From Desulfobacterales bacterium (GTDB lineage Bacteria > Desulfobacterota > Desulfobacteria > Desulfobacterales > UBA5616): 64,000 nucleotides of DNA. This document shows positions 6,161 to 28,683 of this stretch, piece by piece. Below the pieces are notes generated by a model. It was given only the letters and a program-made list of their open reading frames with translations. It was not told where the DNA came from and searched no databases. The stretch lies in the NCBI GenBank assembly GCA_046483495.1, contig JAWODC010000001.1:1-64000 (forward strand). The letters are read 5' to 3'. The position numbers were made by a program, and so were the translations under genes. Position 1 is the stretch's first letter. Each line of letters starts with the position of its first letter.

Positions 6161-6477
6161 GCTTTTTTAAAAATGTTTTTCAATCGATTTTCAGCGCTCC
6201 GGATTGTTTTTTTTATGAGCGTTTACCTGGGTTACCGGCAAGCGAATTCAATTGCTTAGAGACCTTTCAGGCCGCCATCGTATTCATTCACATTTCGAAT
6301 ATTCGACCGGTGTCATATGAGACTGCTTGTCGTCTATGTGTAGAGGGACTGTGTTGATGCATTCCAATTGGGCCTGTTACCGCAAGCCCGGCTTACAGGT
6401 GGCGGTATCCGCTATCCGAACAGCTGATTTTATGAAGCTCACCTCATTTTTTGAAACCAAAACATCGGCATTCAGTA

Positions 6478-6501
6478 CCCGCCCGAATTTAGTCGGGCGG
6501 G
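6478..6501. repeat. GC-rich palindrome (REP-like or terminator) just downstream of the DUF1302 gene
   Basis: CCCGCCCGA-ATTTAG-TCGGGCGGG perfect 9-bp stem. Confidence 0.5.
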
Positions 6502-6521
6502 CGTTATAATATAGTAGAACA

Positions 6522-8204
6522 CTAAAAGGAAAACTGAGTGGTCAGAATCAGCATGTCGGAATCCTTTAGCAATCCATATGGATATTCATAAAAACTGTCA
6601 CCGAAAACATTGGCCCACTGGAGTTTAAACGACAGGTTGCTGTCTAAAATATCCGGTGTATAAGTGAATTCCGGCTGTATCAAACCGCTGCCGCGAAGGT
6701 TATATAAAACAGTTACTCCCGGCTTGTACATATTTGCCCGGTACCCTGTGCTGAAGCTTGTCAAGAAAGTGTGGGAATCCTTGTGATAGGTAATAAAATA
6801 AGTTGGGACGTGAATATCATCGAGATCATCGAGAATAAACTCCCCTACATACTCCACAATTAGAGAAAATGTTGCGTACTTGTTTAACGACCTGATCATA
6901 AGGTCCTTATTTAATCGGGCTTGAGCCAGGAGGTTATCCTTTTCGGTAATGCCTTCCGGATACTTTGCGAAATCCAGCGTATTGTATTGACGATCCGGCC
7001 GATAGGCGACATCAAATGCCAGTACACCGAAGCTAAAGTTTTTATTCGCAAAAAAACCGTACACGTTCTGTTTGGGATACTCTACGACCAAATTCAAAGG
7101 TGTACCGATAGGGCCTAACCCGCCCTTTACCCGTATTGTCGGGCTAAGTTCATTTGAATGCCAGAAATAAACCCCCGTCTGCCATCCCGCCAGTATCGAG
7201 GATGTTTTAAATCCCCACCTTGCATCCTCCAGGCTGGAATCGGGATAATCCGTCGTAGACACGGGGGGTCTTGTCAAATAAATCCCCGACGCCGGATAAG
7301 GCGTACCGGCAAATGCAGGACCGAAAAGGGATTCCGCCATCGCCGCATCGATCGGTGCTGTCGGGCCACCGAAGATATCGGCACCCTGGTAAATAAAACT
7401 GAATGGCGGGCCGGCCAATGGACCCGGGACAACCAGTGTAGTGCCGCCCGGACCGGCCCCCGGTATCGCGATAACGGCATCACGGGTACCGAACAGCTTT
7501 TCCATTCGGATTTCAGGATAAGCGGCGAACCGAGGAGCGGGCGTGAATGATCCGTCCGAGTTAACGGTAAGAGCGGCTGATGGGGTTCGATTCACGCGAT
7601 AACGGTCCGCTTGTATGTAAGGAGAAAACACCCAGTCAAGACTGGTGTTGATGGATGTAAAAAGGTGAAGTCCCCGGATCATCCAGATGGGCATTCGGGT
7701 GTCTTCCAGGTTGGTAAAACCCAGATCAAACCGAGAGTCTACGGGGTTGATTACATCCCCGACGCGGGCGCTGATGGATTCACCCCAATTAACGATCTGG
7801 CGGCCGATGCGAAGACTGTGGAGCGGGGTTATTCGCCAGTCCAGGCGAAGTTCTCGAAAGTCAAAGTAATTGTACTCGTTGGCCGGTATTCCACCACCTT
7901 CTTCCCGTTCATATTCGGGCTCGTAAACGGCAAGCACCTCAGCTTTTAAATCGAGGTTCGATGTAAACCCGCCGTTGAGGTTCAGCCGAAACCAGTTTCT
8001 GAAGGAAGCCAATGGATCCTGGTTATTTACATAATCCATGCTTTCCAACCAGACAGCCGTGTTGTTCCTAACGAAACCATCCAATTCCCAAGGCTGCTTC
8101 GGCATCTCAAAAGCATTGGCAAAAGAGGGGAAAAACAGAAATATCGCCCAAAGCAATCCAATCTGTTTAAAACTACTCACAATAGGTGTAAAGCGTTTCT
8201 TCAT
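6522..8204 (-). CDS. DUF1302 family outer-membrane beta-barrel protein
   Basis: Signal peptide; LRIGRQIVNWGE..DVINP.D..LEDTRMPIWMIR; C-terminal F; co-oriented with DUF1329 genes as is usual for this family. Confidence 0.8.
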   Translation of the reverse strand: MKKRFTPIVSSFKQIGLLWAIFLFFPSFANAFEMPKQPWELDGFVRNNTAVWLESMDYVNNQDPLASFRNWFRLNLNGGFTSNLDLKAEVLAVYEPEYEREEGGGIPANEYNYFDFRELRLDWRITPLHSLRIGRQIVNWGESISARVGDVINPVDSRFDLGFTNLEDTRMPIWMIRGLHLFTSINTSLDWVFSPYIQADRYRVNRTPSAALTVNSDGSFTPAPRFAAYPEIRMEKLFGTRDAVIAIPGAGPGGTTLVVPGPLAGPPFSFIYQGADIFGGPTAPIDAAMAESLFGPAFAGTPYPASGIYLTRPPVSTTDYPDSSLEDARWGFKTSSILAGWQTGVYFWHSNELSPTIRVKGGLGPIGTPLNLVVEYPKQNVYGFFANKNFSFGVLAFDVAYRPDRQYNTLDFAKYPEGITEKDNLLAQARLNKDLMIRSLNKYATFSLIVEYVGEFILDDLDDIHVPTYFITYHKDSHTFLTSFSTGYRANMYKPGVTVLYNLRGSGLIQPEFTYTPDILDSNLSFKLQWANVFGDSFYEYPYGLLKDSDMLILTTQFSF

Positions 8205-8284
8205 CAGCATCTCCTCCTCCTCTCTGTTTCCGATAATAGGTTCGGTGTTAACTCTTAAGTTAATGGTATTATCGGTAGATTGCA

Positions 8285-9511
8285 TTATGGCCAGGTTTGA
8301 AAAATGGCCGGATCGAATAATTCGGTTGGAAACCCGGAATCGATTACAAGCTTATTTGTTATTATCTGGAGCCAATGGCCGGTTTTTAGGTCGAAATCCA
8401 TTTGCGAGTTGTAAGGGCCGTATTCGCCTTTTTCTGTTTTTACTTTAGATACATTGCAAATCAATCCCTTCCACTGTTCTCCCCTCTTATCGTAAACCTC
8501 GGTATACACGTTCCAGTAATTATGCTTATTCATAAAAAGAACTTTTTTTGACTCTGGATATTTTGGATCCCTGGGAATGACTTCTATTTCATAAACATCG
8601 ACGAGACCGTACGGATAATCCGGTCCATGAAAGACGGGATACGGATAGTATCCCTCCGGATATTTCTCGTAATGAAGGTCCTCATCATAATTTATATTTC
8701 CGATAACCTTTTTTTCAGCAACCAAATTATAGGTAAATTGCTGCAGTTTTCCGTCAAAGCCCATAAAATCATCGTAGGTAAGAGGCGATCCGTTTATGGG
8801 ATTGGCCCTTTCAGAGGAGACCATTCGCAGCGTTCTGCGAAGAGTAGGGATGTAAGACCACATATCATCGTCCTTAACAGGGTCTATATAACGCCACTGC
8901 AGGGTCTGGAGATTTCTGTATGCAGGCTGAAAAAATCGGTTCATTTGTGCCCAGTACAACTCGTTTGGATTATTTAAATTTTTTTTGAACCCGGGAGCTG
9001 TTCGCCCAATGTAGCGTACCAGGGCCGATTTGCTGTAGGATTTAGTTATTCTCCCGCCCCTCCGTTGCTGGGTTGAAGCCGTCAGGTGAGGTTCCCTGAA
9101 ATAATAATCATCCGTCCGCCACCTGTAATAGTAGTTCGCCATTATTTTTTCGATTTTGTTTGGTTCTTTGACATCAGGAAATGGATATCCACAATATTCA
9201 AAACCGGCCAATTCAAAATTCTCCGGATTCAGCGTAACCTTTCCTTTGTTTTTTTCAGATGCTTCCCTAAATGACTTGGGTGGGAGAGGTATTTCAAGAT
9301 CCTCCACATGTATAGGAGTAGTAGGTTCTACAAGGCCAAAACCATCCTTGATGAACCGAACCACGAAGGGTGGAAAATATTCTTCGTATTCCTCGACATT
9401 TTCCGAATTGACCACATCTCCAAAATTGACTTCCTTGGCTATGGTGAAGTATGGCGTTATCAGCATTATAATAGATAACACTAAAATAAATTTACCGATT
9501 TTTTGAATCAT
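8285..9511 (-). CDS. DUF1329 family periplasmic protein, paralogue 3
   Basis: Signal peptide; DDDMWSYIPTLRRTLRMVSSERANPINGSPLTYDDF; closely similar to 1080..2321. Confidence 0.88.
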   Translation of the reverse strand: MIQKIGKFILVLSIIMLITPYFTIAKEVNFGDVVNSENVEEYEEYFPPFVVRFIKDGFGLVEPTTPIHVEDLEIPLPPKSFREASEKNKGKVTLNPENFELAGFEYCGYPFPDVKEPNKIEKIMANYYYRWRTDDYYFREPHLTASTQQRRGGRITKSYSKSALVRYIGRTAPGFKKNLNNPNELYWAQMNRFFQPAYRNLQTLQWRYIDPVKDDDMWSYIPTLRRTLRMVSSERANPINGSPLTYDDFMGFDGKLQQFTYNLVAEKKVIGNINYDEDLHYEKYPEGYYPYPVFHGPDYPYGLVDVYEIEVIPRDPKYPESKKVLFMNKHNYWNVYTEVYDKRGEQWKGLICNVSKVKTEKGEYGPYNSQMDFDLKTGHWLQIITNKLVIDSGFPTELFDPAIFQTWP

Positions 9512-14387: not shown

Positions 14388-15824
14388 TTATGATTCAGAA
14401 GTATTTCTCCTTAAAAAAAGATTTTCCATACGTAAAGAAGGGGTCTGTAATAGAGCTGTTCGTTTTAGACTATCCGGATCAAAATCGATTTGTCGGTATC
14501 TGATCTTTGAATCGGGTTTGGCACTGGTGAATTTTCCGTTATTTCTAATCACAAGGCCATCTTTGATCAAACACCAGCAGTTGGAGAGCGCCTCGACTGT
14601 TTGAGCGGCAGACATATTCGGTTTAAGATCATACACGGCGATATTGGCTGCCGCACCCACTTTTAAATGTCCAAGATCATCAAGACCGAGTTGAGAAGCA
14701 GGTCCCAGGCGCGTAAAACGCGCAATATCGAATAAATCAAATTCTCGGCCATCGAGGACGTTATCGATCGATTCCGGACGCTGAGCTTTATTTATCAGCC
14801 ATGATACAACAAGGGGGATCCGGTCCATATATCCCATAGGGGGTGAAATCGAAGAGAGAGAAATCCCGCCTGAATTACCGCACCTATTCATCGTAATCCA
14901 TCCGATTTGCGATAAATCGCTCATAATTTCAATTTTACGCATTCTGTACTGCAGTGGGTAAGCGTTTTGAATGCCCGCATCGATTGAAAATGTACCGGGC
15001 AAATATTCATCTGTGCATGAAACATCAAGAAATTTTCGGTTATGATTGAGCCCGAGCGATGCTTTACCGCCGGAGTTAAGAAAGCATTCCATATTTTCCA
15101 GGGAATTTTCCGATTCGAAAGTATCGGCCAAACAGGAAATGACAAAGCGTTCCGCCATCGGAATAGTATTTTCCAGCAAAGAGGGAACTCCCCAAAGGGC
15201 TAATGGAAAAACATCGGGGTCATCTATCTCGGAAAGAAATTCAAACGTCTTTTTAGTGCTGATGTTTTTCTGGATGTAATAGGGCTGTTTATGTCTGAGG
15301 AACGGAAAAGTAATGAACAATCCGATGGCTCCGGTCAGGTGGATCAGCGCTCGAATTTCATCACAAAACCCGTTTACATTTTTTGATTTGATGTTTTTCC
15401 CCATATCCCTGAAGTCAAGCGAGATATTAAAGGACTTATCAACATACGGTATTTGGTTAAGCGTCCGTTGCACATCGTGGGCCATGAGCAACGAGGTAAA
15501 CGGATGATGAACGTGGACATATCCCATTCGGGAGAATGCAGTGCCGATATTTACCGGACTGGGAATCCCTTTATCCAAGAGCGGGGCAAACTGCTGTCCG
15601 GGAAAGGCGAGATGGCAGTTTGGATCTATACCCCCAGCCATTGCGATTCTTTCCTCAAGGTCGATAACCATATCGGGATTATCAATAGGCGGACATATTA
15701 CGCCATCGGTCATATGAATATTCCTGAGTTCACCATTCCAATCCTGGGCGGGATCGTACACTCTGGCGTTTCGAATGCAAATTTTTGGTCTAATTTCCAT
15801 GCGTACACGAATTGTGGGGTTCAA
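14388..15824 (-). CDS. fwdA: Formylmethanofuran dehydrogenase subunit A-like amidohydrolase, metal ligands largely lost
   Basis: IRNARVYDP, AGGIDPNCH, FSRMGY..IPYVDK, FDIARFTRLGPA..LGHLKVGAAANIAVYD align to FwdA; HxH reads NCH and the carbamylated-Lys position reads F. Confidence 0.8.
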   Translation of the reverse strand: MNPTIRVRMEIRPKICIRNARVYDPAQDWNGELRNIHMTDGVICPPIDNPDMVIDLEERIAMAGGIDPNCHLAFPGQQFAPLLDKGIPSPVNIGTAFSRMGYVHVHHPFTSLLMAHDVQRTLNQIPYVDKSFNISLDFRDMGKNIKSKNVNGFCDEIRALIHLTGAIGLFITFPFLRHKQPYYIQKNISTKKTFEFLSEIDDPDVFPLALWGVPSLLENTIPMAERFVISCLADTFESENSLENMECFLNSGGKASLGLNHNRKFLDVSCTDEYLPGTFSIDAGIQNAYPLQYRMRKIEIMSDLSQIGWITMNRCGNSGGISLSSISPPMGYMDRIPLVVSWLINKAQRPESIDNVLDGREFDLFDIARFTRLGPASQLGLDDLGHLKVGAAANIAVYDLKPNMSAAQTVEALSNCWCLIKDGLVIRNNGKFTSAKPDSKIRYRQIDFDPDSLKRTALLQTPSLRMENLFLRRNTSES

Positions 15825-17149
15825 TCGATTCTGTTTAAAAGTTCCTTTAAAACGAAGGCCCCCGAAGGATAGGCCTCTACATGAAGCCCTTCAATTTTTT
15901 CAGTTAAGAGAGGGAGCCCTTCCGCTCTAAAAAATATCCCGCCCGTCTCGACACCCGGCAACGATAAAGGTATTGAAACACAGGCACTTGCGTACGGTTC
16001 CTGTTTGAAATGATTCAGAACGATGAGCTTCTTTTCAGAAAAAATTTCCGGCGGCAATATCCGATTCGCTCCTTCCGGACCCGATTCCACCATTAAAACA
16101 CATCCTGAAATTTCCGCCGCGGATTTCAATGCGTCAACGGTGTCGGTTTCGGTAAGGGTCCCTGAGTAGTCGAATCCGCCGCATACATTGTGGTGTTCAA
16201 GTGATATGCGTTTAAAACCTTCTATGTTGGCCCCTGTACGCGACAGCGGTAAAATCACCGCTCTTTTACGGCCTGATAGGTTTACGTTTGCCGCCCATTC
16301 AAATAAAGAGTTCAGGCCATCCATGGCTGTTTTCTCCGCATCGACGAATACGGCTATATAGGATGCCCGCTGTAGAGAATTGATCAGTAAGGGAAAATCA
16401 CGATGATCATACGGCTCCGCCTGCGGCGGTGTCATTAGAGCTTTTAAAAAGCGGCTGTCATCACAAGATTTTAACATGAAAAACTGTTGGCAAAGCGGTT
16501 CGATTATCATTTTTTGGTCTGCAACGCCAATTAATGTGCGATCACTGTTGCCTCTTTCCGTATAACGCCCTCGGGGAAAATAGGAATAACGAGAAAGGTG
16601 TCTGTGATGTGTATCCAACGGATCGGCTCGCCAAAAAATCACGGCATCGGCTCTGTCTCTGATTTCATCGAGCAGGGCTGTTGCCCACCCGTACGTTTTT
16701 GCGCATCGATAAAATCGGTTTATTCCCGTCACACCCCACGGCATCCAAATGCCGTTTAGCCTTTCCGCGAGCTTCCGGGATTCTACAATGGCATTTTCAT
16801 CCAATGCATCCGCCCCCAGAATAAGCGGCGCTTTACCGGTTTTGAGCAGCTCTGCCGCAGCATTCAGATTGTGATCCAGAGCATGGGAAGAAAGTGGAAC
16901 TACACGATCTTCAGCAGAAATCGTACGAATTCGTTTCATTGCGATTTCACACAAATTCAAGGTCCTGACAAGCCGCCCGTCCTTTACATAATATGAAATA
17001 TCGTCACAAAGACAGCTGCAGCCGGAGCATACCTTGGAGTGGCATGCCAGATCATAATCATCGAATTCATTCTGCTTAACAACCGGATCTTGAATCGTAC
17101 CATTTTCTACCATCTCAAGGTTTTCTTTTGTAAACTTTTGGATGCTCAT
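15821..17149 (-). CDS. fwdB: Formylmethanofuran dehydrogenase subunit B-like protein lacking the Mo/W-ligating Cys
   Basis: VCSGCSCLCDDI..NLC FeS motif; LDEIRDRADAVIFW..HRHLSRYSYFPRG...ERG..DRTLI is an FwdB signature; no CHG motif. Confidence 0.85.
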   Translation of the reverse strand: MSIQKFTKENLEMVENGTIQDPVVKQNEFDDYDLACHSKVCSGCSCLCDDISYYVKDGRLVRTLNLCEIAMKRIRTISAEDRVVPLSSHALDHNLNAAAELLKTGKAPLILGADALDENAIVESRKLAERLNGIWMPWGVTGINRFYRCAKTYGWATALLDEIRDRADAVIFWRADPLDTHHRHLSRYSYFPRGRYTERGNSDRTLIGVADQKMIIEPLCQQFFMLKSCDDSRFLKALMTPPQAEPYDHRDFPLLINSLQRASYIAVFVDAEKTAMDGLNSLFEWAANVNLSGRKRAVILPLSRTGANIEGFKRISLEHHNVCGGFDYSGTLTETDTVDALKSAAEISGCVLMVESGPEGANRILPPEIFSEKKLIVLNHFKQEPYASACVSIPLSLPGVETGGIFFRAEGLPLLTEKIEGLHVEAYPSGAFVLKELLNRID

Positions 17150-17299: not shown

Positions 17300-17761
17300 T
17301 TATACAAGTTCCATTGCATCGGTGGGGCAATAATCGGCGCAGGCTTTACAAGGAGGTGCAGAGGGTATCGCCCTGTTGCAAAGCTCAGGATGAACCAGAA
17401 TAATCCGTGCATCGACAATCTGCATAACGACAATATCGTCCCAAGCCGGCCCTTTTCCAAGGGTCACTTCAAAATTGTTCGCTCCGTGAACGGGGCAAAC
17501 GTTAATACATATTCCGCACCCGATACACCGGTCTTGATCCACTATCAGGCCGGTAAGTTCGTTCTTTATTCCGTCTCCAAGCAAATCTTTCAAGTATTTC
17601 TTATTTTCGGCAAACTCCGGTTCAGAAAGGGTCGGGCAATCTTCGGGTCTCACGTCCCTTGACAAAAGGTAACCGGCGAATTTGATGCAATTCATTCCGC
17701 ATTCCCCACAGTTTGTCTTGGGAAGGTATTCATATATATCGTACATGCTTTTTTGAGACAT
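17300..17761 (-). CDS. fwdG: FwdG-like ferredoxin with N-terminal AcsC/CdhE/RnfB-type FeS domain
   Basis: IYEYLPKTNCGECG..C..FA..L...CP domain plus CIGCGICINVCPV..GKGP..VMQIVD..PELC..CKACADYCP (the GKGP insert is typical of FwdG). Confidence 0.75.
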   Translation of the reverse strand: MSQKSMYDIYEYLPKTNCGECGMNCIKFAGYLLSRDVRPEDCPTLSEPEFAENKKYLKDLLGDGIKNELTGLIVDQDRCIGCGICINVCPVHGANNFEVTLGKGPAWDDIVVMQIVDARIILVHPELCNRAIPSAPPCKACADYCPTDAMELV

Positions 17762-17778: not shown

Positions 17779-18327
17779 TTATTCAAACTCATCGGAAATT
17801 AGTCTTTTGGTTGCTTTATTTGCAATGAAACCGGAAAAGCCGACCATATTCGGATTCGAAAAATAATGCTTGAATTCCTCGTTTCTCGGCCATCCGATGA
17901 GGCAGTCGACCTTTTCTTTTTCCGGATTCACCAGCCAGAGCTGAAAAAGGTGGTCTTTAACCGGAAAGAACCATTCCTCTTTATCAATCAGGAATTCAAT
18001 AAGATAATGCTCCGAAACAGGCGGTAGGGCCAGAACGTAATCAATCGTATTTTGTCGAAAGCATTTTGCCGCAGCGAGTTCCCGGAAACCCTCGACGGCA
18101 TCGTTTACCCCTTCACGGACCACAAAAATAATTTCATCTTTTATTTTATTGTTCTTGCGAACAGCCCTGATATCGGGCTTCATAAAGCCGATGGGTTTTT
18201 CAGGGACCAGTTTATAGCCGGCATAATCCAGGAACCATCTCAACGTATTAATGATCTGATGCCTGTTATAAAGAGGTATTTCATCATATTTTCTGAACCA
18301 GCGCTGGTCGTTTTCTTCTGTTTTCAT
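17779..18327 (-). CDS. Conserved hypothetical protein, possible restriction-endonuclease-like fold; paralogue of 27199..27960
   Basis: Clean ORF with GAGG RBS, tightly packed in the operon; FLDYAGY..KPDIRA..DYVLAL pattern. Confidence 0.65.
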   Translation of the reverse strand: MKTEENDQRWFRKYDEIPLYNRHQIINTLRWFLDYAGYKLVPEKPIGFMKPDIRAVRKNNKIKDEIIFVVREGVNDAVEGFRELAAAKCFRQNTIDYVLALPPVSEHYLIEFLIDKEEWFFPVKDHLFQLWLVNPEKEKVDCLIGWPRNEEFKHYFSNPNMVGFSGFIANKATKRLISDEFE

Positions 18328-18368: not shown

Positions 18369-19742
18369 TCAGATATTTTCCTCACCAGGCCATTCTTCAT
18401 TAGGACCGGGTATCTTCAGAGGGACCGGTTCGCCCTCTTTCCAGAACTCCTTGATGATCGGGTGCTCAACCCTCTTGAGAAACTCTTTTATTTCATTTGG
18501 TTCAATGCTTACTTCTTCCGTAGCGATTTTGTCGTATATCTCTTCAGGGATGCAGTCGGCCAACAACACCTTGAATTCTTTAGGCATCCAAACAACTCTT
18601 TTCCAGCCCCCGTCTCCCTGGAGGAATTTTTTGGATTTCGGCGTCCTTGCGGAAAGCCCCATCGATCCATGATTCTGGTTTCCACCACTCATGTATCCCG
18701 CCATTTTTGAAAAATTAATGCCAAGTGGCGTGTCGCCGGGATGGCGCCGGTCAACCAGGCCGATGCCGTCAAGTTCCGGTAAATAGAAAGCCGCCGCTTC
18801 AAAACACCCACAGTTGGTTTGCGGATATTTAAGGCAGCTGTAAAGATTGACTTTTCTAACCCGTCTCGAAGAGCGTTCATAAATCGCTTGGTCCACTCCG
18901 GTATACCGACCCATAACCGGATCGATACACTCTCCTTTAGGCATCATAAATGAATATCCATAAGGATCTATTTCTACAATTGCTTTGGCACCGAGATAGC
19001 TCATAATCCCGCAATAAGGGTTTCGCTGGGGAGTTATGCAGCATACATGGTTAGGCGCAAATGTTTGACAAAGTGTACATCCATAAAACGTGTCGACATC
19101 TTCATCTTCCACCCCCTGCAGTCGGGCATCATAGGCTTCCCACTCAGGACGAATAGTGCTGTCTAAGATATCTCGTATGAGTTCGACTCCACCGACCTCG
19201 GGCGTAGCGATAATGATTTGCACCTCCGCTTTTTCCACAAGCGGGAAATTGATTTTACAATTTCCGATAAGCGCCTGTCCCATTCGTTGCCATGAATTCT
19301 TGTGGGCACTTTCATTGTTCAGCCTGATCCAAATGGTATCGCGGGTATTGACAAGCATCCATCCTTCACCGTCCTCAAAAGGCTTGAATCCCGCCCGGAT
19401 CAGGGGATCGATGTGATCTTCGGTCAGCTGAGTTCCCCAGTACCTCATCCAGATGCCAAAAGGAAAAGATGAGCCGGGCTCTGTCTCGTCGATTTCCGGC
19501 CCGATCAGTTCAATGCGGCCGTCTTCAACATCTTCAGCGTTTTTCATCACGTCACAATGGATGTAACTTGTATATCCGTGCTTGGGCCCCCCTATTTCCA
19601 TGTACATATCGCTTTTTCGAACCTTTTGTCCCATCCAGCGCGGCGAAATTTCTATTTCAACACCGTCAAAGAGTTCGTCAAAATCGGTCGGTGCCTGATA
19701 AATTCGTCCTTTGGGTAGCTTTATGCCTGGTATTTCGATCAT
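18369..19742 (-). CDS. cdhC: Archaeal-type acetyl-CoA synthase beta subunit homologue (divergent)
   Basis: FYGCTLCQTFAPNHVC..PQR..CG and PQTNCGCFE carry all A-cluster Cys; GDGGWKRVVWMPK..KIATEE; lacks the bacterial AcsB N-terminal domain. Confidence 0.92.
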   Translation of the reverse strand: MIEIPGIKLPKGRIYQAPTDFDELFDGVEIEISPRWMGQKVRKSDMYMEIGGPKHGYTSYIHCDVMKNAEDVEDGRIELIGPEIDETEPGSSFPFGIWMRYWGTQLTEDHIDPLIRAGFKPFEDGEGWMLVNTRDTIWIRLNNESAHKNSWQRMGQALIGNCKINFPLVEKAEVQIIIATPEVGGVELIRDILDSTIRPEWEAYDARLQGVEDEDVDTFYGCTLCQTFAPNHVCCITPQRNPYCGIMSYLGAKAIVEIDPYGYSFMMPKGECIDPVMGRYTGVDQAIYERSSRRVRKVNLYSCLKYPQTNCGCFEAAAFYLPELDGIGLVDRRHPGDTPLGINFSKMAGYMSGGNQNHGSMGLSARTPKSKKFLQGDGGWKRVVWMPKEFKVLLADCIPEEIYDKIATEEVSIEPNEIKEFLKRVEHPIIKEFWKEGEPVPLKIPGPNEEWPGEENI

Positions 19743-19811: not shown

Positions 19812-20276
19812 TTATATCGTTTCAATGAAATTTTTAAGCCACTGCTCCCATTCATACAAGGTATCAGCTTCCACACATTTTTCAGCAGTTAATGACTTCC
19901 CCGGTCCCAGGTGAACACTTCCGACACCTTCCAAACCTGAAATCATTCCGTCTATAAATTCCGGCCGGTACCCGATATACAACAGGAGATCCGGACGCTT
20001 ATTTAGAATTGGATCCATCCATTCTCCTTTTAATGATGCCATTAGTTCACCAAGCCAGGCTTTTTGAATACTGATGGTCTGATGTTTTTCAAGCCCTTTG
20101 ATAGTATTCCCGGTTGCCGCTATAGGACATTTCATCTTTGTTGCGAGATCGGCGGCATACTCCAAGAGCTTTATGTTGCTCAATTTTATGTGGTCACATT
20201 CTTTTCCAGCCAAGATAAGAGGGTTTTTGTGTTGCCTGATGTACCGTATACAATCACTTAGATCGATTTGTTTCAT
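19812..20276 (-). CDS. cdhB: ACDS epsilon subunit homologue
   Basis: KNPLILAG..PIAATGN..EW......PDLLLYIG; position between cdhA and cdhC. Confidence 0.8.
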   Translation of the reverse strand: MKQIDLSDCIRYIRQHKNPLILAGKECDHIKLSNIKLLEYAADLATKMKCPIAATGNTIKGLEKHQTISIQKAWLGELMASLKGEWMDPILNKRPDLLLYIGYRPEFIDGMISGLEGVGSVHLGPGKSLTAEKCVEADTLYEWEQWLKNFIETI

Positions 20277-20278
20277 GT

Positions 20279-23005
20279 CTACTCCTTTACCGCCTCACGC
20301 ATTACCAATCTTTTGATAAGAGTAGCGTAGGCCCCCTGTTTGATCCCATAATTTTCGGTGTAATCTTCCAGTGAAACCATATTCCCTGAACGGTCCTTAA
20401 CTTTGTTTACCTGTGTGCGTTCGATTTCCCATCCGTATTCTTCCCTCAAAATCTTCAGAAGCCGCATCCGCTTCATGACATGCAATTCAAGAGGGCTTCT
20501 GACAAAGTAGGTCCAGTCATCCGGCAAATGACCGAAATATTTCTCGTGAATTTCGGTGTAATTATCGATGACGGAAAGCCTTGGGTCACGCAAATTGCAG
20601 GCCAGTGCAAACAGTTTCATCGTCATTGTAAGTGCTTCTTCCTTGGTTTCAACGGGGTAAATACCATGCATGGGGGAGGGATCAATCTCTTTTAGGTCTC
20701 CTGTTACACCATCGTATATGGTCCAGGTCGATCGGTCATATTTGTTGCCCACCAATGATCGAAACGTCTCAAGGCCGTTGGGCCCAACGACTACCTGTGC
20801 ACCCATTCTGACGAATGACGACGCCTTGGCAAGCATCTTATCCGAAGCCGCCCCCCAGATGATAACGACAAAGGGAGCGCGGTTCATACTGTAATCCGCC
20901 GGTTGCTCCAGGTTGCCTTTAATCGAAACCCCTCCTCCCAGCAGCGCGAACTTTGATAAAGATCCAAGAATATGGGAATCAGCGGTACATCCGCCGCAGT
21001 TAACAAAACCCTTTAGAGTAGCCATTGCCAAATATTTTTCCGGAAATGACTTTTCCGACTTTTCATCAATAATCCTTGAAACGTCTGCAGCGGCACACCC
21101 GGCAGTCATGACCACGCAGTTTCTATCCAGCAGCTCCTTGGCCATAAAAGCCATTTCATCATCCGTACCCGGATACCTGCCGCAGCCTAAGAGAACGGCC
21201 ATTCCGGGACCATTGCCGCCCAATACAAGTCCAAATGTAAGATCGCGGAATTCCAAATGGCTCAGGGGGCCTCTTCCCGGTCGCATCCTGAATGCATCTT
21301 TGCTTATTGCTTCTGCATTTGCCGCCAATATCAGATCGATAATGGGAATATTTTCCGGGCAAACGTCCTCGCACTTGCCGCAGAAAAAGCAAGATTTGTA
21401 AATATCTTGAAAAGTGAAGCCCTCCTCATCCTTCATTGCCGTACTGATCTGAAGGGAATTCGGGCAGGCATGAAAACACCTGTCACATGCTGTACACCGC
21501 TCCTTTTCAAACTCCAGTTCCTCTAACTTTAAAATAGTTCCCATTTTGCCGGCAAAATTTTTAAAATACACGGCAATAACGTTTGCGGCTTTTTCATACG
21601 AGCGAACGAGTACGGCTTCTCTATTATTCAGGCGGTTGCAGATTTCTTCCTCCGTTTCCTCTGAAAGGTCCGGCGCATCGAGGCACGTTGCGGAACCGGC
21701 GGCCAGTAAGGGAATCCCCGCTTTTTTCGCCTGTCCTGCAAGATCGATTGGGAAACAACTTTCAGTGGCGACAATCAAGTCCGCAATACCGGACCTAATG
21801 GCTTTGATCGCTTTGCCTGTGGACGTCAAAACCTTGCCTTCCGGATACATCCGGACGAGTTCATGGCCTGCATTTCCGATGCCGGTGATCTCTATTTTCT
21901 TTTCTATCCCTTCTTCTTCCAATACCCCTACGGTATGGAATATCGGCATGATATTATCCCCAAAAAAAGCAAGCACGGGCTTGCTCCTGTCGACCGTGCC
22001 CATACCGACAGGCGTCCTGGCTGGAGGATAATTTGCAACATCAGCCACACCCATGTCGCCTGTGGATAGAAATCCGAAACAGCAGATCTTGACCATTTCC
22101 TCGACTTCTGTTGCAAGGGCGAATATAGATCCCAGATGGAGAGAGCGAGCCTCCAGCTCCATCGGATTGCCGTTTTTCTGTTCAAGAACGGCCAATTGCT
22201 CGACAAGCTGTGATTCACCATATTCAAGGACCCCGTCCATTTCCGCCAGATTTTTAGGGTAAAACCCTGTAAGCAGGGCGATATTGCAGGTTGGATAGGC
22301 AATGGATCGACCAAGATCGATCTCCTTCTCAGGCCCAAGCGCAGCAATGGCCTCGTCTAAAACCCCGCGGGCGGACGCAAGAGCTTTGGCAGTCGCCGAG
22401 ACATGGTCTTTCAGGGTTTTCGATGCCTGAACGATATCACTTGCCTGTTTTCTTTTCCCGTGCTCGATAACATATTCCGGACTTGTATATAAAGGGCGAT
22501 ATCGGTTAAGCAGGACCTGGTCCCATTCGCTCAAATCACCTGCCTTTGGGAATGGAATAATTTTTGTACCGTATTGTCTTACCCGGGATTCATTGTAATC
22601 GGTCTTAAGAATTTTCTTTACTAATTCTTCCTTCCCGCGTATATCCGGCGTTATATCCGTCAAATCCAGTTCGTAACTCCCTACCGTTGCGGTAATATCG
22701 CCTTTTCCCGGCATTTTGAATTTTTTCAGACGGTCTTTAACAGATTCCGCATCCTCAGCAACAGCTGCATGCTCCTCTTCTTCAAAAAAATCGGTTTCTG
22801 CCAAACATCTGGCACAAACCGTAATTTTTTTCTGCGCTGGTCCGAGTACGCCTTCCGTACTCACGCCCCCCACTCTATGGGACGCGGAAATATCCTCGGT
22901 CTGCACGACCTGTTTGCACATTTCACATAGATTTATGCCGCAAATCGCGCATTTTTCGATTGCTTCATTTTCGTTACATGAACCGCAGATGATTTTTTCC
23001 GCCAT
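20279..23005 (-). CDS. cdhA: Archaeal-type CODH alpha subunit homologue, degenerate, with N-terminal Cys-rich finger
   Basis: LSEWDQVLLNRY.P.Y, GMGTVDRSKPV, two ferredoxin motifs (CTACDRCFHACP, CFFCGKCEDVCP), RPGRGP, LGC, AGC, NCGGC..SHI, WGAASDK, Y.E.H.KYFG.LPDDW..FVR. Confidence 0.88.
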   Translation of the reverse strand: MAEKIICGSCNENEAIEKCAICGINLCEMCKQVVQTEDISASHRVGGVSTEGVLGPAQKKITVCARCLAETDFFEEEEHAAVAEDAESVKDRLKKFKMPGKGDITATVGSYELDLTDITPDIRGKEELVKKILKTDYNESRVRQYGTKIIPFPKAGDLSEWDQVLLNRYRPLYTSPEYVIEHGKRKQASDIVQASKTLKDHVSATAKALASARGVLDEAIAALGPEKEIDLGRSIAYPTCNIALLTGFYPKNLAEMDGVLEYGESQLVEQLAVLEQKNGNPMELEARSLHLGSIFALATEVEEMVKICCFGFLSTGDMGVADVANYPPARTPVGMGTVDRSKPVLAFFGDNIMPIFHTVGVLEEEGIEKKIEITGIGNAGHELVRMYPEGKVLTSTGKAIKAIRSGIADLIVATESCFPIDLAGQAKKAGIPLLAAGSATCLDAPDLSEETEEEICNRLNNREAVLVRSYEKAANVIAVYFKNFAGKMGTILKLEELEFEKERCTACDRCFHACPNSLQISTAMKDEEGFTFQDIYKSCFFCGKCEDVCPENIPIIDLILAANAEAISKDAFRMRPGRGPLSHLEFRDLTFGLVLGGNGPGMAVLLGCGRYPGTDDEMAFMAKELLDRNCVVMTAGCAAADVSRIIDEKSEKSFPEKYLAMATLKGFVNCGGCTADSHILGSLSKFALLGGGVSIKGNLEQPADYSMNRAPFVVIIWGAASDKMLAKASSFVRMGAQVVVGPNGLETFRSLVGNKYDRSTWTIYDGVTGDLKEIDPSPMHGIYPVETKEEALTMTMKLFALACNLRDPRLSVIDNYTEIHEKYFGHLPDDWTYFVRSPLELHVMKRMRLLKILREEYGWEIERTQVNKVKDRSGNMVSLEDYTENYGIKQGAYATLIKRLVMREAVKE

Positions 23006-23077: not shown

Positions 23078-25276
23078 TCAGTGTGCCGCCGCATGCACTT
23101 CACCGACGAGGGCGTCTTTCATGCAGGTTGTATCTTCAATTACGGTTATCCTTCCCCGGCCGATACGGGCTATTTTGGTCATTAGATCGGGATTTGCGTT
23201 TTCCTCATTGATGCAGATGCAGGAAATGGTAATTCCTTTCCTGACTGTTTTTGCGGCTTCCTTTATGGCAAAACCGGCAGGGGATGGATGCGGTGCAGTC
23301 GCATCGCCGTCTGATACGAGAATGATATGCTGCTTGCTGTGGCTTTTAGAATGACGTGCAAATAAACCTCTTGCGGTGAGCAGGCCGTATCCGATATTTG
23401 TAAATGCATTCTCCTGCAGCTCGAGATCAAGCACCCTCTCCGTCAGCATGAACGTGTTCTTTGTAAGGTCAGATATAACCCTGGCCATATTTGAAAACGT
23501 TATCAGGCCTACCCTGTCTCCATAATTCGAAGCTGCGAGTGCCAGCGCGATTACGCTTTCCTTACCGTACCAGACCTTTTCAAGCTGATCCATTGTTCCC
23601 GACATGTCCAAACACAAAAGTATATCCATTCGGTTCCGAATATCCCTTTTCATAATCCTGATATCTTCCCGCGCAATTTCCCTGTGCCTGTTCCGAATGG
23701 CTCTGCGTATAGTCCTGTTCAGGGACACATCTCTATATTTATCCCCAAAACGCCACGAACGGGTCCCGACAATCCGCCCCTCCCCTATATTGCTTTTTGT
23801 GCCGGATTTATGCATCCCCTGCCCGATGATAGTTTCGGAAAACCCAAGTCTCGGAGCAAGCTTCTCCAGCAGCAGCATAATACCGCGCATCGAGAGCGTG
23901 TACCCTCTCTCGGAACGGGATAAAATCTGATGGTCCTCCAGCATATCAAGTGTTTTAATTAGAGCCTCCTCTTCAAGCTTGGCCCTGAGCTCGGCGTTGA
24001 GTTTTAGCTGCTTTTCCTGAACGTCATCAATTTCGGATAAGAGTTCGAGGGTCAGTTCCTCGCCGAGATACGAACTACTGTGTTTATCGAGAAGCCGGTC
24101 GACCATCCTTCCGTGTACATTAGCCAATTCGGAATCCGGAAAGCGCTTGATTCTCTTCAAAAGGATATCGAACATTCCAAATTTCAAGGGTTTCCTGAAT
24201 TGATCTTTTCGGGCTATTTCATCTACGATAGCCAGCATTTTTTCCTTCGAAAGAGGCATAACGTCTTCGCTTTTTTCCGAAAGGCCGAGTGCATGCATTA
24301 CAATCTCTTGTATTATCTCGCTTGCCCGTCGATTCGTTTCGGCATGCGGCGCCACCTTGACCCGGTGCGGCAGCGATATCATCGATGCTGCCTGAAGAAT
24401 ACCATTCGGGTCGTCTTCGCCGTTCAATCGGGTGTAAGCGGATGCCAATTCGCCGAACCGGATGGTCCCCCTGATGGAAATGCCCCTTGAAAGGTCTTCA
24501 TGACGACGTGTATTCGCAACCACTTCTATTCCGGGCTCTACCCATGCAAAGTCATTCGATCCGGCAAAAATTTTCTTTTCGAATACCGGATCGACCTTAT
24601 TTGAAAGCGAAATGGAATCAAAATGATCTGATAGGTCGGCCGGGAAAAGGGCCAATGTGCCCCTTGCGCCGGTGGCAATTATCATCGTGTCAAGAGGAAA
24701 AGCCTCATCGAATTTCCCAATAGTAATCACATCCCCCGAAAGGCCGGCTAAGAGCGTGTTGAGGACCCTCTCCGGCATTCGGTCCATGAAATCGAGTATG
24801 AGAATACGCCCATTAGCCTTTAACATTTTACCTGGAACAAATGCCCTGAGATCAAAGATTCCGTATTCAAATGCCGTTTGAGGATCAAGATCACCGATAA
24901 GATCGGCAACGGCCAAATCGGAACTTCCGGACACCCTGACAAACCTGTCTTTTCCCTTCAACGTCTTCGAATACAACGGTTCATCGTTTGTTAATCGGCG
25001 GAGGCACCATGGACATTCAGGTGAATCGATGCGGCAATTGACAGGGCATCCGTCTACAACCTTCCTGTCCTGCAACAGATTTACAACCCGCTCAGCAAGA
25101 GTTGTTTTCCCGATACCGGGCTGCCCTTCCAATAAAACGTGGTGCCCGCATATTAAGGAGGCCATAAAGTTTTTTTTGTGATCCTCGGGGAGGGACAATC
25201 CCTTAAAGAGCGCATCGCGAATGTTATTGTCCCCTGCCGAGAGGATCGAATTGTTTATTTCATCGGTTATCTTCAT
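23078..25276 (-). CDS. ChlD/BchD-like AAA+ ATPase (degenerate Walker B) fused to C-terminal VWA domain
   Basis: HVLLEGQPGIGKT, DGCPVNC....CPWC, PGKMLKANGRILILDFMDR; VWA LCLDMSGTM..TN...GL..ILVSDG. Confidence 0.85.
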   Translation of the reverse strand: MKITDEINNSILSAGDNNIRDALFKGLSLPEDHKKNFMASLICGHHVLLEGQPGIGKTTLAERVVNLLQDRKVVDGCPVNCRIDSPECPWCLRRLTNDEPLYSKTLKGKDRFVRVSGSSDLAVADLIGDLDPQTAFEYGIFDLRAFVPGKMLKANGRILILDFMDRMPERVLNTLLAGLSGDVITIGKFDEAFPLDTMIIATGARGTLALFPADLSDHFDSISLSNKVDPVFEKKIFAGSNDFAWVEPGIEVVANTRRHEDLSRGISIRGTIRFGELASAYTRLNGEDDPNGILQAASMISLPHRVKVAPHAETNRRASEIIQEIVMHALGLSEKSEDVMPLSKEKMLAIVDEIARKDQFRKPLKFGMFDILLKRIKRFPDSELANVHGRMVDRLLDKHSSSYLGEELTLELLSEIDDVQEKQLKLNAELRAKLEEEALIKTLDMLEDHQILSRSERGYTLSMRGIMLLLEKLAPRLGFSETIIGQGMHKSGTKSNIGEGRIVGTRSWRFGDKYRDVSLNRTIRRAIRNRHREIAREDIRIMKRDIRNRMDILLCLDMSGTMDQLEKVWYGKESVIALALAASNYGDRVGLITFSNMARVISDLTKNTFMLTERVLDLELQENAFTNIGYGLLTARGLFARHSKSHSKQHIILVSDGDATAPHPSPAGFAIKEAAKTVRKGITISCICINEENANPDLMTKIARIGRGRITVIEDTTCMKDALVGEVHAAAH

Positions 25277-25304: not shown

Positions 25305-26138
25305 CTAAATTTCCAGGCTTCTTATTTCACTCATTTTTTCTTTTCGGATATCGTCGATCCTGGCAAAAGCATCCTTTGCCGCCGTCATTGTCCCGGAATT
25401 TTTCGGCAGCTGCCATATTGGCTTTGCCAGGGCATCCATTTCAGCCACATCGGGGTCAAAGGGCAAAAAGCCAAGCAATTCCAAGCCTGCTTCATCGGCG
25501 TATTTCTTGATTATATCCCTTGTTTTATCGGCTATCTTATTGGCCAGTACCATCATACGGCCAAACTCGATGTTTAATTCCTCGGCGATTTTTTTTACAC
25601 GCGCCGCCGTCGCCATTCCCTTTGCCGACCCATCGCTTACGATAAGCATAAGATCCACATTCCTGGCGGTTCTTCTGGAGATATGCTCAAGTCCGGCTTC
25701 CGAGTCAATGACAATGGTGGAATAATTCTTTGCCTGGCTGTCGATAATGGAACGAAGAATGTGATTAATATGGCAATAGCATCCTTCCCCTTCACTTCGT
25801 CCCATTACCAAAAGATCGAAGTGCCTGTCTTCTACAATAGCCTCCATAATGCCTTTTTCAAGGACCTTGTCGACAGTGACATTCCGGTTTTCAGTCTGTC
25901 GCGTCTTAAACTTAAGAAGTGATTCACGTATATCGCCTACCGAATGCACTGCTGCTACCCCAAGCGCTTCCGGAAGGTTTGAGTCGGGATCTGCATCGAT
26001 GGCCAGAACAGGTCCGAAATCTACGAAATATCTGACCAGCAGGGAACTGATCAGCGTCTTGCCGGTACCTCCTTTTCCGGCGACAACAATAGTAAATCCC
26101 GTCAGTTTATCCCTTGTTGGCATCACCTTATTCTCCAT
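25305..26138 (-). CDS. cooC: CODH/ACS nickel-insertion ATPase (CooC/AcsF family)
   Basis: AGKGGTGKT, AIDADPDSNL, MGRSEGEGCYC, DSEAGLEHISR. Confidence 0.92.
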   Translation of the reverse strand: MENKVMPTRDKLTGFTIVVAGKGGTGKTLISSLLVRYFVDFGPVLAIDADPDSNLPEALGVAAVHSVGDIRESLLKFKTRQTENRNVTVDKVLEKGIMEAIVEDRHFDLLVMGRSEGEGCYCHINHILRSIIDSQAKNYSTIVIDSEAGLEHISRRTARNVDLMLIVSDGSAKGMATAARVKKIAEELNIEFGRMMVLANKIADKTRDIIKKYADEAGLELLGFLPFDPDVAEMDALAKPIWQLPKNSGTMTAAKDAFARIDDIRKEKMSEIRSLEI

Positions 26139-27165
26139 TCATAATATCTTTGACAATTTCTTTTACGAGCCCCATACTATCGTCGTAGTATCTGGATTCC
26201 GGACTCGTTTTGACACGACCTGCGATCGTAGATATCGCTGCCTCTTTTATATGATCGATCGACACCTCATCTTTTTTCTCAAGCCACGCATATGCTTGGA
26301 TTTTCTCATATAATGCCAGTCCGGCCCGGACAGATGCCCCCTGGTCCATATCCTTGTTCCATGGCTCCTCACGTGTCGACCGAATAATCTTTATAACCAG
26401 ATCGAGCATCTGTTCCGGAACCTGAACGTTATCGATTCGGCTGCCATATTTCTCAACGATATTTTTCTCGATTTCAGGTGTTTCCGGGTAATCCATAGTT
26501 ACAACGTCAAACCGGTCCAACAGGACGTCGGAAAGCTCCTCGACACCGGCATGTTCACGTGGATTCATGGTGGCAATCATCAGAAAGTTTGCCGCATAAT
26601 CGAGATCATAGGGACCGATTGTAGCTGTACGCTCCTCCAGAACCTGCAAGAGGGCATTCTGAAGCTTTTCGGGAATCCGATTGAGTTCGTCGAAAAACAC
26701 AATTCCCCTGTTGCCCTTGAGCAGCTTTCCAGGCGTAAATGCCCGCCAGTCATGGGGTCCATATTTGAAGGCCATACTAGGGTCTACATCCCCCAAGAGG
26801 TCTTCTGCCGTCAAATCAGGGCTCCCCTGTATGCGGACGAACCGCTGTGCGCCGGAAATTAACGTTTTTATAAGCGCTTTGCTTTCTTTTTTCCTTGCAA
26901 GGCAGGAAGGACAAACGGGATCCTCCGGCCGGCAGTGAAAAGGGCATCCGTCAACAGCCTCGACAGGAGGCAAAATTGCAGCAAGCTGCCTGGCCAGTGT
27001 GGTTTTGCCCACTCCGGGCGGGCCCTCGATCAAAACGTGGTGACCGGAAAGAACCGAAGCAAGAATTCCCTTTTTCGTTACGATTTGTCCCATAATGTTG
27101 TTTAGAGGATCGTCTCCCCTTTCCAAGAAACTTTCTATCGTCTCTTTCAATCCCTCTACGACCAT
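26128..27165 (-). CDS. ChlI/MoxR-like AAA+ ATPase
   Basis: HVLIEGPPGVGKT, DGCPFHC.P..PVCPSC, RIQGSPDLTAEDLLG, FFDELNR, IATMNP, LLDRF. Confidence 0.9.
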   Translation of the reverse strand: MVVEGLKETIESFLERGDDPLNNIMGQIVTKKGILASVLSGHHVLIEGPPGVGKTTLARQLAAILPPVEAVDGCPFHCRPEDPVCPSCLARKKESKALIKTLISGAQRFVRIQGSPDLTAEDLLGDVDPSMAFKYGPHDWRAFTPGKLLKGNRGIVFFDELNRIPEKLQNALLQVLEERTATIGPYDLDYAANFLMIATMNPREHAGVEELSDVLLDRFDVVTMDYPETPEIEKNIVEKYGSRIDNVQVPEQMLDLVIKIIRSTREEPWNKDMDQGASVRAGLALYEKIQAYAWLEKKDEVSIDHIKEAAISTIAGRVKTSPESRYYDDSMGLVKEIVKDIMNGE

Positions 27166-27198: not shown

Positions 27199-27960
27199 TC
27201 ACTCTCGAGCCATTACATACTGCATTCGAATATCCTGCCACTGTCTTGAGGAGGCCGAAAAATAGCGCACCAATCCGTGAACCTGCGGATAAACGGTAAA
27301 CGGATATATCCGGTTTGGATCCGAATTATCAACACCGTAAACACCAATCCGATGTGATGCCAATTTATCCATATTGGCCATTACCCATGACTCCTGAACG
27401 GACAAAGGTATACCGAACGGTTCCTGAAAGGCTGCAACCACCAATCCATAATCATGCGTGTGTTTGTGCTCTTTGCGAAACTCGATAAGCTTCCTTGCCT
27501 TTTCCGATGCTTTTTCATTGCAGCATGGTGTAATCATAAGAAAGAACCGGCGCTTTTTGATAAAACCAAATAGATCGGTTCCGGGATAATCGCCAATTTC
27601 ATACCCGTTATCCAGGAGCAGCTCGGAAAAGGCGGTTCTTATATATGTCACTGCATCATTTTCATCGTCAAAATCAAACCTGTTGCGAACCGGAAGAATA
27701 TGGCTCGTCTTCGTCGGATTCACCCATGGATCTAAAATCTTGGGCCTCTCGCGTTCGATCTCACCTGCCAGATAACATATATCCTTGACTATTGTGTTTT
27801 CATGAATGAGCTCAACCGACAGCAGAACCTTCACCTCTTTTGAGGCATCTTTTTTTTCCAGTATTCGAATATCCTTGACCCGCCAATCTTCTGGATAAGG
27901 GAGTACGATCGACATTTTCCGATCAGAAAAAGCTTTATTCACATCACGAACCGTGGTCAT
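27199..27960 (-). CDS. Conserved hypothetical protein; C-terminal domain paralogous to 17779..18327
   Basis: 253-aa ORF, first gene of the cluster; LLLDNGY..TDLFG..DYGLVV pattern. Confidence 0.65.
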   Translation of the reverse strand: MTTVRDVNKAFSDRKMSIVLPYPEDWRVKDIRILEKKDASKEVKVLLSVELIHENTIVKDICYLAGEIERERPKILDPWVNPTKTSHILPVRNRFDFDDENDAVTYIRTAFSELLLDNGYEIGDYPGTDLFGFIKKRRFFLMITPCCNEKASEKARKLIEFRKEHKHTHDYGLVVAAFQEPFGIPLSVQESWVMANMDKLASHRIGVYGVDNSDPNRIYPFTVYPQVHGLVRYFSASSRQWQDIRMQYVMARE

Positions 27961-28044: not shown

Positions 28045-28683
28045 TTAATTTTCATCGGGAAGCACAGATTCAATGCTTTTTTGATCATTCATATGAAGAA
28101 TTTTCATAAACTGATCCACCATTTCATTAATACTAAACTTTCCGTCCTTTTGGTACCAGGTCAGAGACCAGTTGCAAATCCCATAAATGACCATGGCAAA
28201 AACCCTGATATTGATCCCTGAAATAGCTTCAGGATGCTCTTGACGAATTTGTACAAGTATTTTTTCTATAAGTTTCAGATAGTTTCGTTCCGTTTGCTTC
28301 ATAAGAGCCTTGTTTTCATCGACAAGATATTTACTCTCGCTGAAAAACACCTTAAGGGCGTCTCTCTTTTCCGGCAACTGCCCCAAATAGGAATAAAACA
28401 GGTATCCTAATTTTTGTATTCCATCATAGGAATCGTTCTCAACTATTCGTTCCAGTTCATTGATAAAACCCGGAGTCAATTCGGCAAGCATTGTCCGAAG
28501 AATGTCATCCTTATTTTTAAAGTAATAAAACAGCGTACTGCTTTGAATGCCCACCTCTTCTGAAATCATTCGAATCGAAGTGCCATGATACCCCTTCTCA
28601 ACCATCAGCTTCGCTGTTGAATCGAGAATATTCTTATAGGTATTGTTGTGGTTGATGTCTCCGGACTGTTTCATTTTTTCCAT
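28045..28683 (-). CDS. TetR/AcrR family regulator (PaaR/KstR2-like)
   Basis: KGYHGTSIRMISEEVGI..STLFYYFKNKDDIL; C-terminal GICNWSLTWYQKDG.FS. Confidence 0.92.
   Translation of the reverse strand: MEKMKQSGDINHNNTYKNILDSTAKLMVEKGYHGTSIRMISEEVGIQSSTLFYYFKNKDDILRTMLAELTPGFINELERIVENDSYDGIQKLGYLFYSYLGQLPEKRDALKVFFSESKYLVDENKALMKQTERNYLKLIEKILVQIRQEHPEAISGINIRVFAMVIYGICNWSLTWYQKDGKFSINEMVDQFMKILHMNDQKSIESVLPDEN

Follow-up and report, generated by a model that had tools for sequence, protein, structure and literature searches.

The window analysed here, the first 64,000 nucleotides of contig JAWODC010000001.1 from a Desulfobacterales bacterium (assembly GCA_046483495.1), carries a tight run of minus-strand genes with gaps of -11 to 150 bp, in the order TetR-type regulator, 253-aa ORF (open reading frame), ChlI-like AAA+, CooC-like, ChlD-like AAA+/vWA, cdhA*, cdhB, cdhC*, 182-aa ORF, Fe-S protein, fwdB-like and fwdA-like (Table 1). 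Here cdhA* denotes a paralogue of the archaeal carbon monoxide dehydrogenase (CODH) gene cdhA, and cdhC* the gene of the neighbouring acetyl-CoA synthase (ACS). The frame of cdhA* is open over 908 aa and starts at 23005, and the extent of 20279..22780 given by an earlier, sequence-only reading was therefore too short, leaving out 75 residues with eight Cys. These residues hold a finger that is conserved across the subclade of the gene and that is encoded in other members (17 loci) by a separate ORF of about 73 aa just upstream of cdhA*, the L051 copy of which matched zf-B_box with E 4e-6. An AlphaFold model of the protein (pLDDT 82.8) gave TM(target) values of 0.87-0.89 to 9c0q, 8riu and 3cf4, and from alignment and model the CdhA fold is present together with the E/F domain and the C-terminal extension.

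Table 1. Features of the cdhA* operon, in positions of the window, and TGA-GGG-TGA sites at other loci. The last column gives the recurrence of each gene over 73 loci, of which 24 are shorter than 12 kb; the two AAA+ queries can cross-match.
Feature	Position	Strand	Remarks	Loci of 73
cdhA*	20279..23005	-	CdhA paralogue lacking the C-cluster His/Cys pair, HxxHxxH and B/D Cys; TIGR00314 483 bits, under the cut-off of 781 bits	73
N-terminal 8-Cys B-box-like finger	22796..23005	-	aa 1-70 of cdhA*	
Cys-free loop in place of the D/B-cluster motif	22430..22501	-	aa 169-192	
Lost Fe-u ligands	21872..21958	-	His to Asp350, Cys-Cys to Gly377-Asn378	
E/F 2x[4Fe-4S] domain	21359..21496	-	intact	
Helix alphaA	21206..21283	-	roof of the ACS nickel in archaeal CODH/ACS; Arg587, Phe591, Val594	
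Gly690	20936..20938	-	at the position of alcove Phe601	
cdhB-like epsilon subunit	19812..20276	-	TIGR00315 E 7e-5	32
cdhC*, two-domain ACS	18369..19742	-	six A-cluster Cys, Phe512 equivalent and R-D-x-x-W kept	36
182-aa conserved protein	17779..18327	-	predicted restriction-endonuclease-like fold	27
Small Fe-S protein	17300..17761	-	CFeSP(AcsC/CdhE)-type N-terminal [4Fe-4S] domain plus dicluster ferredoxin, no corrinoid domain	24
FwdB-like	15821..17149	-	N-terminal [4Fe-4S] motif kept, W/Mo-ligand Cys/Sec absent	23
FwdA-like amidohydrolase	14388..15824	-	HxH motif altered, DPNCH for DxHSH	8
ChlD-like AAA+/vWA protein	23078..25276	-		20
CooC/AcsF-like MinD-type ATPase	25305..26138	-	putative nickel insertase; COG3640 likewise placed in Inoue A-4 contexts	17
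ChlI/MoxR-like AAA+ ATPase	26128..27165	-		17
253-aa conserved protein	27199..27960	-	C-terminal domain like A. fulgidus AF2093 (2ph7)	16
TetR/FadR-like regulator	28045..28683	-	head of run	
TGA-GGG-TGA sites in partner ACS genes	L048:14476, L072:7122, L122:2413, L123 (1492-2859, -), L136:4602, L137:8350, L138:7163, L139			

When the ligand columns were read from an alignment to the solved CdhA structures 8riu, 9c0q and 31ox, the losses described by the sequence-only reading were found in register: the Cys-free stretch after LLNRYRPLY occupies the D/B-cluster columns, HxxHxxH reads KALASAR, and the changes of IGHN to FGDN and of GICC to GIGN both fall in aligned columns, leaving Asp350 and Gly377-Asn378 at the ligand positions. 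The ligands are not merely shifted, the alternative raised at the time, since Cys is absent between residues 68 and 239, as is His between 291 and 356. Of the C-cluster set of one His and five Cys, four Cys are kept as also claimed (Cys417, Cys608, Cys637 and Cys673), together with Lys723 and both CxxCxxCxxxC motifs (504-514 and 539-549); the acid-base pair of CdhA is broken, with HxxHxxH gone and Lys723 kept. The B-cluster motif and the C-cluster His/Cys pair are absent from all of the homologues P0001-P0026, indicating that the substitutions are due neither to chance nor to an assembly error. For the CODH of D. vulgaris it is reported that Fe-u is ligated by the His and the second Cys, and that an enzyme missing just the first Cys is inactive and contains no Ni (PMC6168284). 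CdhA* lacks both Fe-u ligands (His and Cys), the Cys next to the latter, the His of the proton relay and the B/D relay. CO oxidation therefore appears very unlikely, in line with the earlier claim that the protein is not a normal CODH, and its four remaining Cys could plausibly carry an ordinary Fe-S cluster.

It had also been suggested that the protein might form a heterodimer, as the silent partner of an intact CdhA encoded elsewhere. Several archaeal and Chloroflexota hosts of the family do carry a canonical cdhA, but tblastn found no second cdhA in the present host genome (96.7% complete) and none above the cut-off was detected in G004, G005 and five f101 genomes, and since the ligand losses are known to inactivate CODH (PMC6168284), both a silent heterodimer half and a still-active CODH are hardly credible. 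The working system of the host is a bacterial-type AcsAB, encoded on another contig in a cluster acsV-acsD-acsA-acsB-acsC-acsE, the AcsA of which keeps its C-site motifs; a second CooS is encoded as well.

A scan of GTDB genomes yielded 73 loci, with 94 related stretches confirmed; the hosts belong to Thermodesulfobacteriota, Dehalococcoidia, ANME-1, Alkanophaga and one Spirochaetota bin; the named close homologues of cdhA* belong to Desulfobacteraceae/Thermodesulfobacteriota. In a FastTree analysis 77 rows formed one branch with a support of 100, tested against 8 canonical rows only. Among 144 aligned clade rows, the C-site His and Cys pair were lost in all 137 rows with the residue, HxxHxxH was found in 0 of 132, and the four cubane Cys were invariant (137-140 of 137-140 rows with the residue). 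Pairwise dN/dS ratios among seven subclade genes were 0.11-0.18 in 15 unsaturated pairs, a range from which the six pairs involving cdhA* of the window are excluded owing to saturation (pS 0.79-0.87). Thus, cdhA* is under purifying selection and not a decaying copy, and a pseudogene was rejected in view of this ratio and the open frame. Split or truncated copies were observed in ANME-1 (L047) and for the second paralogue of A. volatiphilum (G001:C3:40204-41669), and most archaeal loci have cdhA* either by itself or together with cdhC*. A family of Thermodesulfobacteriota (G245; L126, L129, L133) has up to three cdhA* paralogues per genome. Six further CdhA-like proteins outside the clade (P0158, P0159, P0167, P0168, P0172 and P0178) have lost the C-site ligands and kept the alcove Phe, and are apparently separate retirements of CODH.

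The four invariant Cys might alternatively belong to a new catalytic Fe-S or Ni-Fe centre which acts on a substrate other than CO, as in the CODH-V/HCP-like proteins and as the sequence-only reading had considered. Asp/Asn at 350, His381 (102 of 137 rows), a commonly found Cys670 nearby, the CooC in the operon, the kept E/F clusters and a B motif in 62 of 132 rows (by regular expression, with L031 a false miss and L052 truncated) would all fit such a centre. The replacement residues, on the other hand, vary freely (A/N/P/S/Q at 378 and E/R/K/T/L at 723), and loss of the B relay maps to the query subclade and, separately, to branches within ANME-1; for these two reasons a novel catalytic C-site is unlikely, and with Rossmann 1 and the helical domain among the less conserved regions of the protein we regard it as quite a remote alternative. 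CODH-V (group D-1, HCP-like CooS) resembles cdhA* in combining a CODH scaffold with an altered C-site (PMC6344411), but differs in being of the CooS type, in keeping the His and the B/D clusters, in having gained an HCP-like Glu and in lacking a tie to ACS. CODH-V/D-1 is not known to have CO activity.

The region under strongest constraint is the surface that faces ACS, and selection on this surface was overlooked by the sequence-only reading. Archaeal ACS has no domain A1, its docking face being supplied by Rossmann 2 of CdhA, and an alcove over the proximal nickel is formed in archaeal CODH by Arg500, Leu504, Val507 and Phe601 (PMC11474084). Counting by hand along the 9c0q alignment, these residues correspond to Arg587, Phe591, Val594 and Gly690 in CdhA*. 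Over residues 575-600, identity is 97% inside the subclade and 77% to rows from ANME-1 and Alkanophaga, compared to 29-52% for every other region. Position 690 is Gly in 107, Ala in 17, Ser in 14 and Ile in 2 of 140 clade rows, as against Phe in 10 and Tyr in 1 of 11 canonical rows, and Phe occupies position 591 in 129 of 139 clade rows. The Arg/Leu-Ile/Val/Phe/Phe set of the CO alcove is therefore incomplete through the changes of Phe601 to Gly690 and Leu504 to Phe591, with a compensation by Phe591 being possible. Replacement of the equivalent residue in Moorella ACS (F229A) raised the KD for CO from 12.8 to 340 uM, and methylation persisted (PMC11321310). The type of the helix varies sharply by sub-branch (RDLTFG, QSAFAVGW, QSAFSMVW, RDIAIT and others), and each alcove type pairs with its own ACS type, including the tandem pairs in L051, L052, L058 and L071. 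In Dehalococcoidia (L051, L052, L053, L058 and L071) two tandem cdhC*-cdhA* pairs with differing alcove helices were observed, adjoined by an SDR and often by a B12 acyl-CoA mutase gene.

The ACS partners themselves retain their A-cluster ligands: every one of 39 rows has the four cubane Cys, and the CGC motif is present in all 37 rows that reach it. Clade-specific residues of cdhC* are Pro242-Tyr243, Tyr263, Asn310 and Asn357-His358. The methyl carrier is missing from the surroundings: acsD, full acsC and acsE were found neither in any of the 73 loci nor in the window, with positive controls matching, and the gene of the corrinoid iron-sulfur protein (CFeSP) is present elsewhere in the hosts. 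The only AcsC match covers the first 45-75 residues on the small Fe-S protein, a domain type also found in RnfB-like proteins; in the archaeal acetyl-CoA decarbonylase/synthase (ACDS) the N-terminal domain of CFeSP helps to contact ACS domain A3 (PMC13370988). Five other hosts were searched, and canonical ACS and CFeSP are encoded elsewhere in all five, canonical CdhA/AcsA in three of them and in the present host.

Taken together, cdhA* probably encodes a retired CODH that acts as docking lid and specificity subunit of an ACS repurposed outside the Wood-Ljungdahl pathway (WLP), a reading to which we give a probability of about 0.6. CdhA* would dock to CdhC* as in 9c0s/9c0t, with a Ni-free structural Fe-S cluster on its four kept Cys, and the reshaped alcove would take acyl chains larger than acetyl and either bind CO poorly or plug a CO tunnel that has become useless. 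The small Fe-S protein may meet the open A-cluster at the place of CFeSP and give electrons instead of methyl groups, the A-cluster may receive its Ni from CooC, and remodelling of the complex may fall to the AAA+/vWA pair. Since the complex has no CO source or sink and no methyl carrier, keeps electron carriers and shows a reshaped and diversified pocket, we favour as its reaction, tentatively, a ferredoxin-linked interconversion of acyl-CoA with aldehyde and CoA on nickel via a predicted nickel-acyl intermediate; a CO-retaining acyl rearrangement or an acyl transfer would be the next candidates.

It is unlikely that CdhA* is instead a passive lid under which ACS still makes or cleaves acetyl-CoA, using the CFeSP of the host in trans and exchanging CO with a separate canonical CODH or the medium. 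In its favour, the subclade retains the A-cluster ligands, the equivalent of Phe512 and Arg587/Val594, CFeSP is encoded in all hosts tested, Phe591 may compensate for Gly690, and groups A-4/A-6 were placed with WLP proteins (Inoue 2019, PMC6344411). Yet the hosts already own a full WLP, none of the 73 loci has a CFeSP gene, the disordered C-terminal extension that has been proposed to tether ACS in ACDS is missing from the matching ACS clade (PMC13370988), and up to three paralogues per genome with different alcove helices are hard to fit to one substrate.

Several points weigh against a specificity subunit acting outside the WLP. CFeSP could act in trans, and Phe591 could refill the space at Gly690 and so rebuild a CO alcove. 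E/F clusters normally serve the C-site. The alignment contains related and partly duplicated clade rows, shared descent is reflected in the Mantel r of 0.90 for the pairing with ACS (35 pairs, including 3 canonical pairs and 2 likely mispairs), and some ANME-1 copies are split or have no ACS neighbour. Leu, Met, Val or Gln instead of Phe was found at position 690 in 6 of 13 representatives of 50% clusters with an intact C-site, and some unrelated CdhAs with a degenerate C-site retain the alcove Phe. As R-D-x-x-W is eroded in the Dehalococcoidia partners, which have Leu for Phe512, CoA binding may not be general. Finally, the presence of Fwd-like partners hints at an origin at the C1/formyl level, which the proposed reaction leaves unexplained.

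These partners could also be taken to form a machine at the formyl/C1 level in which Fwd-like subunits replace CODH as the centre of C1 oxidation, for instance from an acyl carbonyl to formate, or with formyl-CoA. FwdB-like genes occur in 23 and FwdA-like genes in 8 of the 73 loci, and their relatives grade from ligand kept to ligand lost, with Cys at the metal-ligand position in 7 of 20 FwdB-like rows and HSH in 4 of 7 FwdA-like rows; a glycyl-radical, PFL-like gene flanks one operon. This is nevertheless very doubtful, as both proteins are stripped of their ligands in the window, unlike FwdAB, and no Fwd-like gene was found in 29 archaeal loci. The flanking genes referred to are a glycyl-radical (PFL-like) enzyme and its activase, located directly upstream of the operon at L048:1303-5122. 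At L060 and L065 cdhA* lies beside genes of the 2-hydroxyacyl-CoA dehydratase type and a radical SAM protein, with HdrA/MvhD in addition at L060.

Eight distinct partner genes, six of them from one family, have TGA-GGG-TGA at the Ni-bridging CGC motif. All eight are followed by a conserved downstream hairpin of -8.6 kcal/mol, compared to a mean of -4.7+-2.0 for 43 Cys rows, two of which are lower. The L123 frame is open for 455 aa when TGA is read as U. Of the five genomes with such genes that were tested, all five encode SelA and four a tRNA-Sec. The eight genes are likely, by these sequence features, to encode a double-selenocysteine ACS (Sec-Gly-Sec), and motif, hairpin and SelA/tRNA-Sec point to a catalytic nickel site. 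Such genes may explain the paired COG1614 entries in the Inoue A-4/A-6 contexts; a term search in the accessible parts of two selenoprotein reviews gave only HgcA as listed.

In A. volatiphilum the gene OD814_000198, which is probably the L036 copy of cdhA* given its equal length of 2529 bp (arithmetic on fragments per kilobase, FPK), had FPK values of 609/637/653 versus 616-1281 and 816-1334 for the two canonical cdhA genes (PMC10322722). Contigs of RNA libraries (four runs of one study) covered the operon of the window and its flanks sparsely, and transcription is not shown by them. The ACS family is conserved, with transcription seen in at least one archaeon; it has neither a CO source nor a methyl carrier, and its pocket is diversified. 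To our knowledge, the A-cluster catalyses one reaction, from CO, a methyl moiety and CoA. It is possible, with the odds against it, that the clade is a second nickel A-cluster family outside the WLP, in which CODH has become a lid and CFeSP an electron carrier, and in which acyl-CoAs and aldehydes of different kinds are interconverted by paralogues that differ in alcove, in some cases on a selenium-bridged Ni-Ni site. If true, this would add a new kind of organonickel chemistry to biology and supply acyl-CoA engineering with a natural library. The family would also be a candidate for the breakdown of lipids or hydrocarbons by anaerobic bacteria and for the last step of the route from alkyl-CoM to acyl-CoA in Alkanophaga. 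The latter step is stated as unknown, and the cdhA* copy is annotated there as CODH/ACS (PMC10322722). We consider cdhA*/cdhC* a testable though patchily distributed candidate for it; a role as universal alkyl-CoM converter was rejected, as a close copy (at least 53% identity) occurs in 28 of 71 genomes of the class of Alkanophaga and also in methane-oxidising ANME-1. Genes of this clade that are counted as CODH/ACS in genomes of ANME-1, Alkanophaga, Dehalococcoidia and Thermodesulfobacteriota inflate the inference of CO oxidation and autotrophy.

Compared to the CdhA of archaeal ACDS (3cf4, 9c0q-9c0t, 8riu), cdhA* shares the fold, the four cubane Cys, the Lys, the E/F domain, the alcove Arg/Val and the gene order cdhA-cdhB-cdhC, but differs in the missing B/D Cys and HxxHxxH, the changes of His to Asp, CC to GN, alcove Phe to Gly and Leu to Phe, the N-terminal finger and the absence of cdhDE from the cluster. 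Groups A-4/A-6 of Inoue (PMC6344411; about 5 and 3 sequences, from bacteria only, placed with WLP proteins) likewise have D/N for the His, lack Cys1 and the D cluster and keep four Cys and E/F, and the gene set matches the A-4 contexts (COG1239, 3640, 1614, 1152, 1880, 1029, 1153 and 1456), COG1456 being matched at cdhA* loci by the small Fe-S protein only. The signatures there are D-P-Q-R (A-4) and N-S-H-L (A-6) with a B cluster, and B-cluster substitution is not marked in the accessible rows, whereas cdhA* has D-N-K and no B; D-P-R and N-S-L/I were found in sister branches. The clade is also wider in hosts, including ANME-1 and Alkanophaga. A 2026 bioRxiv preprint (PMC13370988) describes an ACS clade with an 'early branching CdhA' from Chloroflexota, Thermodesulfobacteriota, Myxococcota and archaea, with two domains, a short structured N-terminal extension and no disordered C-terminal tail, which by these shared traits is probably the cdhC* clade. 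By term search, its accessible text does not mention lost C-site ligands, an alcove change or selenocysteine and proposes no function, and neither there nor in the available parts of Inoue 2019 (PMC6344411) are B-cluster loss, alcove change, CFeSP absence or a non-WLP role mentioned. The clade is not treated in the accessible text of PMC13079737 and PMC11493965, and literature searches outside subscription papers gave nothing on the proposed function. The family is therefore catalogued, as far as these texts go, yet unexplained, and would be categorically new only if the chemistry is confirmed.

Regarding the other operon proteins, the C-terminal domain of the 253-aa protein aligned with 2ph7 with Z 13.1 and rmsd 2.3 over 123 residues. 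Homology between the 182-aa and 253-aa proteins was not detectable by BLASTP, and their nuclease-like folds give no function. A TetR gene also flanks cdhC* in L135. A link to the accessory set of naphthalene carboxylase was rejected, as its listed ATPases are of MRP/ParA types and no match was established.

The window has a GC content of 46.7% versus 51.3% for the genome and encodes many acyl-CoA ligases, hydratases, flavin oxidoreductases and ETFs, with one AOR, and the neighbours of cdhA* are largely of acyl-CoA catabolism (ligase, acyl-CoA dehydrogenase, thiolase, mutase and AOR). cdhA* was not found in 60 relatives of the host, one of them a 96%-complete congener, and the ACS* was present in 13 of 300 genomes of the phylum; a vertical trait of the lineage was rejected on these counts, and we infer that cdhA* was laterally acquired within a catabolic island. 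Scans for promoters and terminators gave 34 versus 25.7+-5.0 and 14 versus 18.3+-4.1, respectively. A dense catabolic set at 28811-62932 with three BaiCD-like flavoenzymes, a 3-ketosteroid-dehydrogenase-like protein, SnoaL, AOR, a Mo-oxidoreductase and two ETF pairs suggests degradation of steroids, terpenoids or alicyclic compounds. Three DUF1329 genes and one DUF1302 gene are clustered at 1080-9511, plausibly for uptake of hydrophobic substrates, and near the contig start (174-824) the N-terminal part of an acyl-CoA dehydrogenase runs into unrelated sequence and is possibly frameshifted or truncated.

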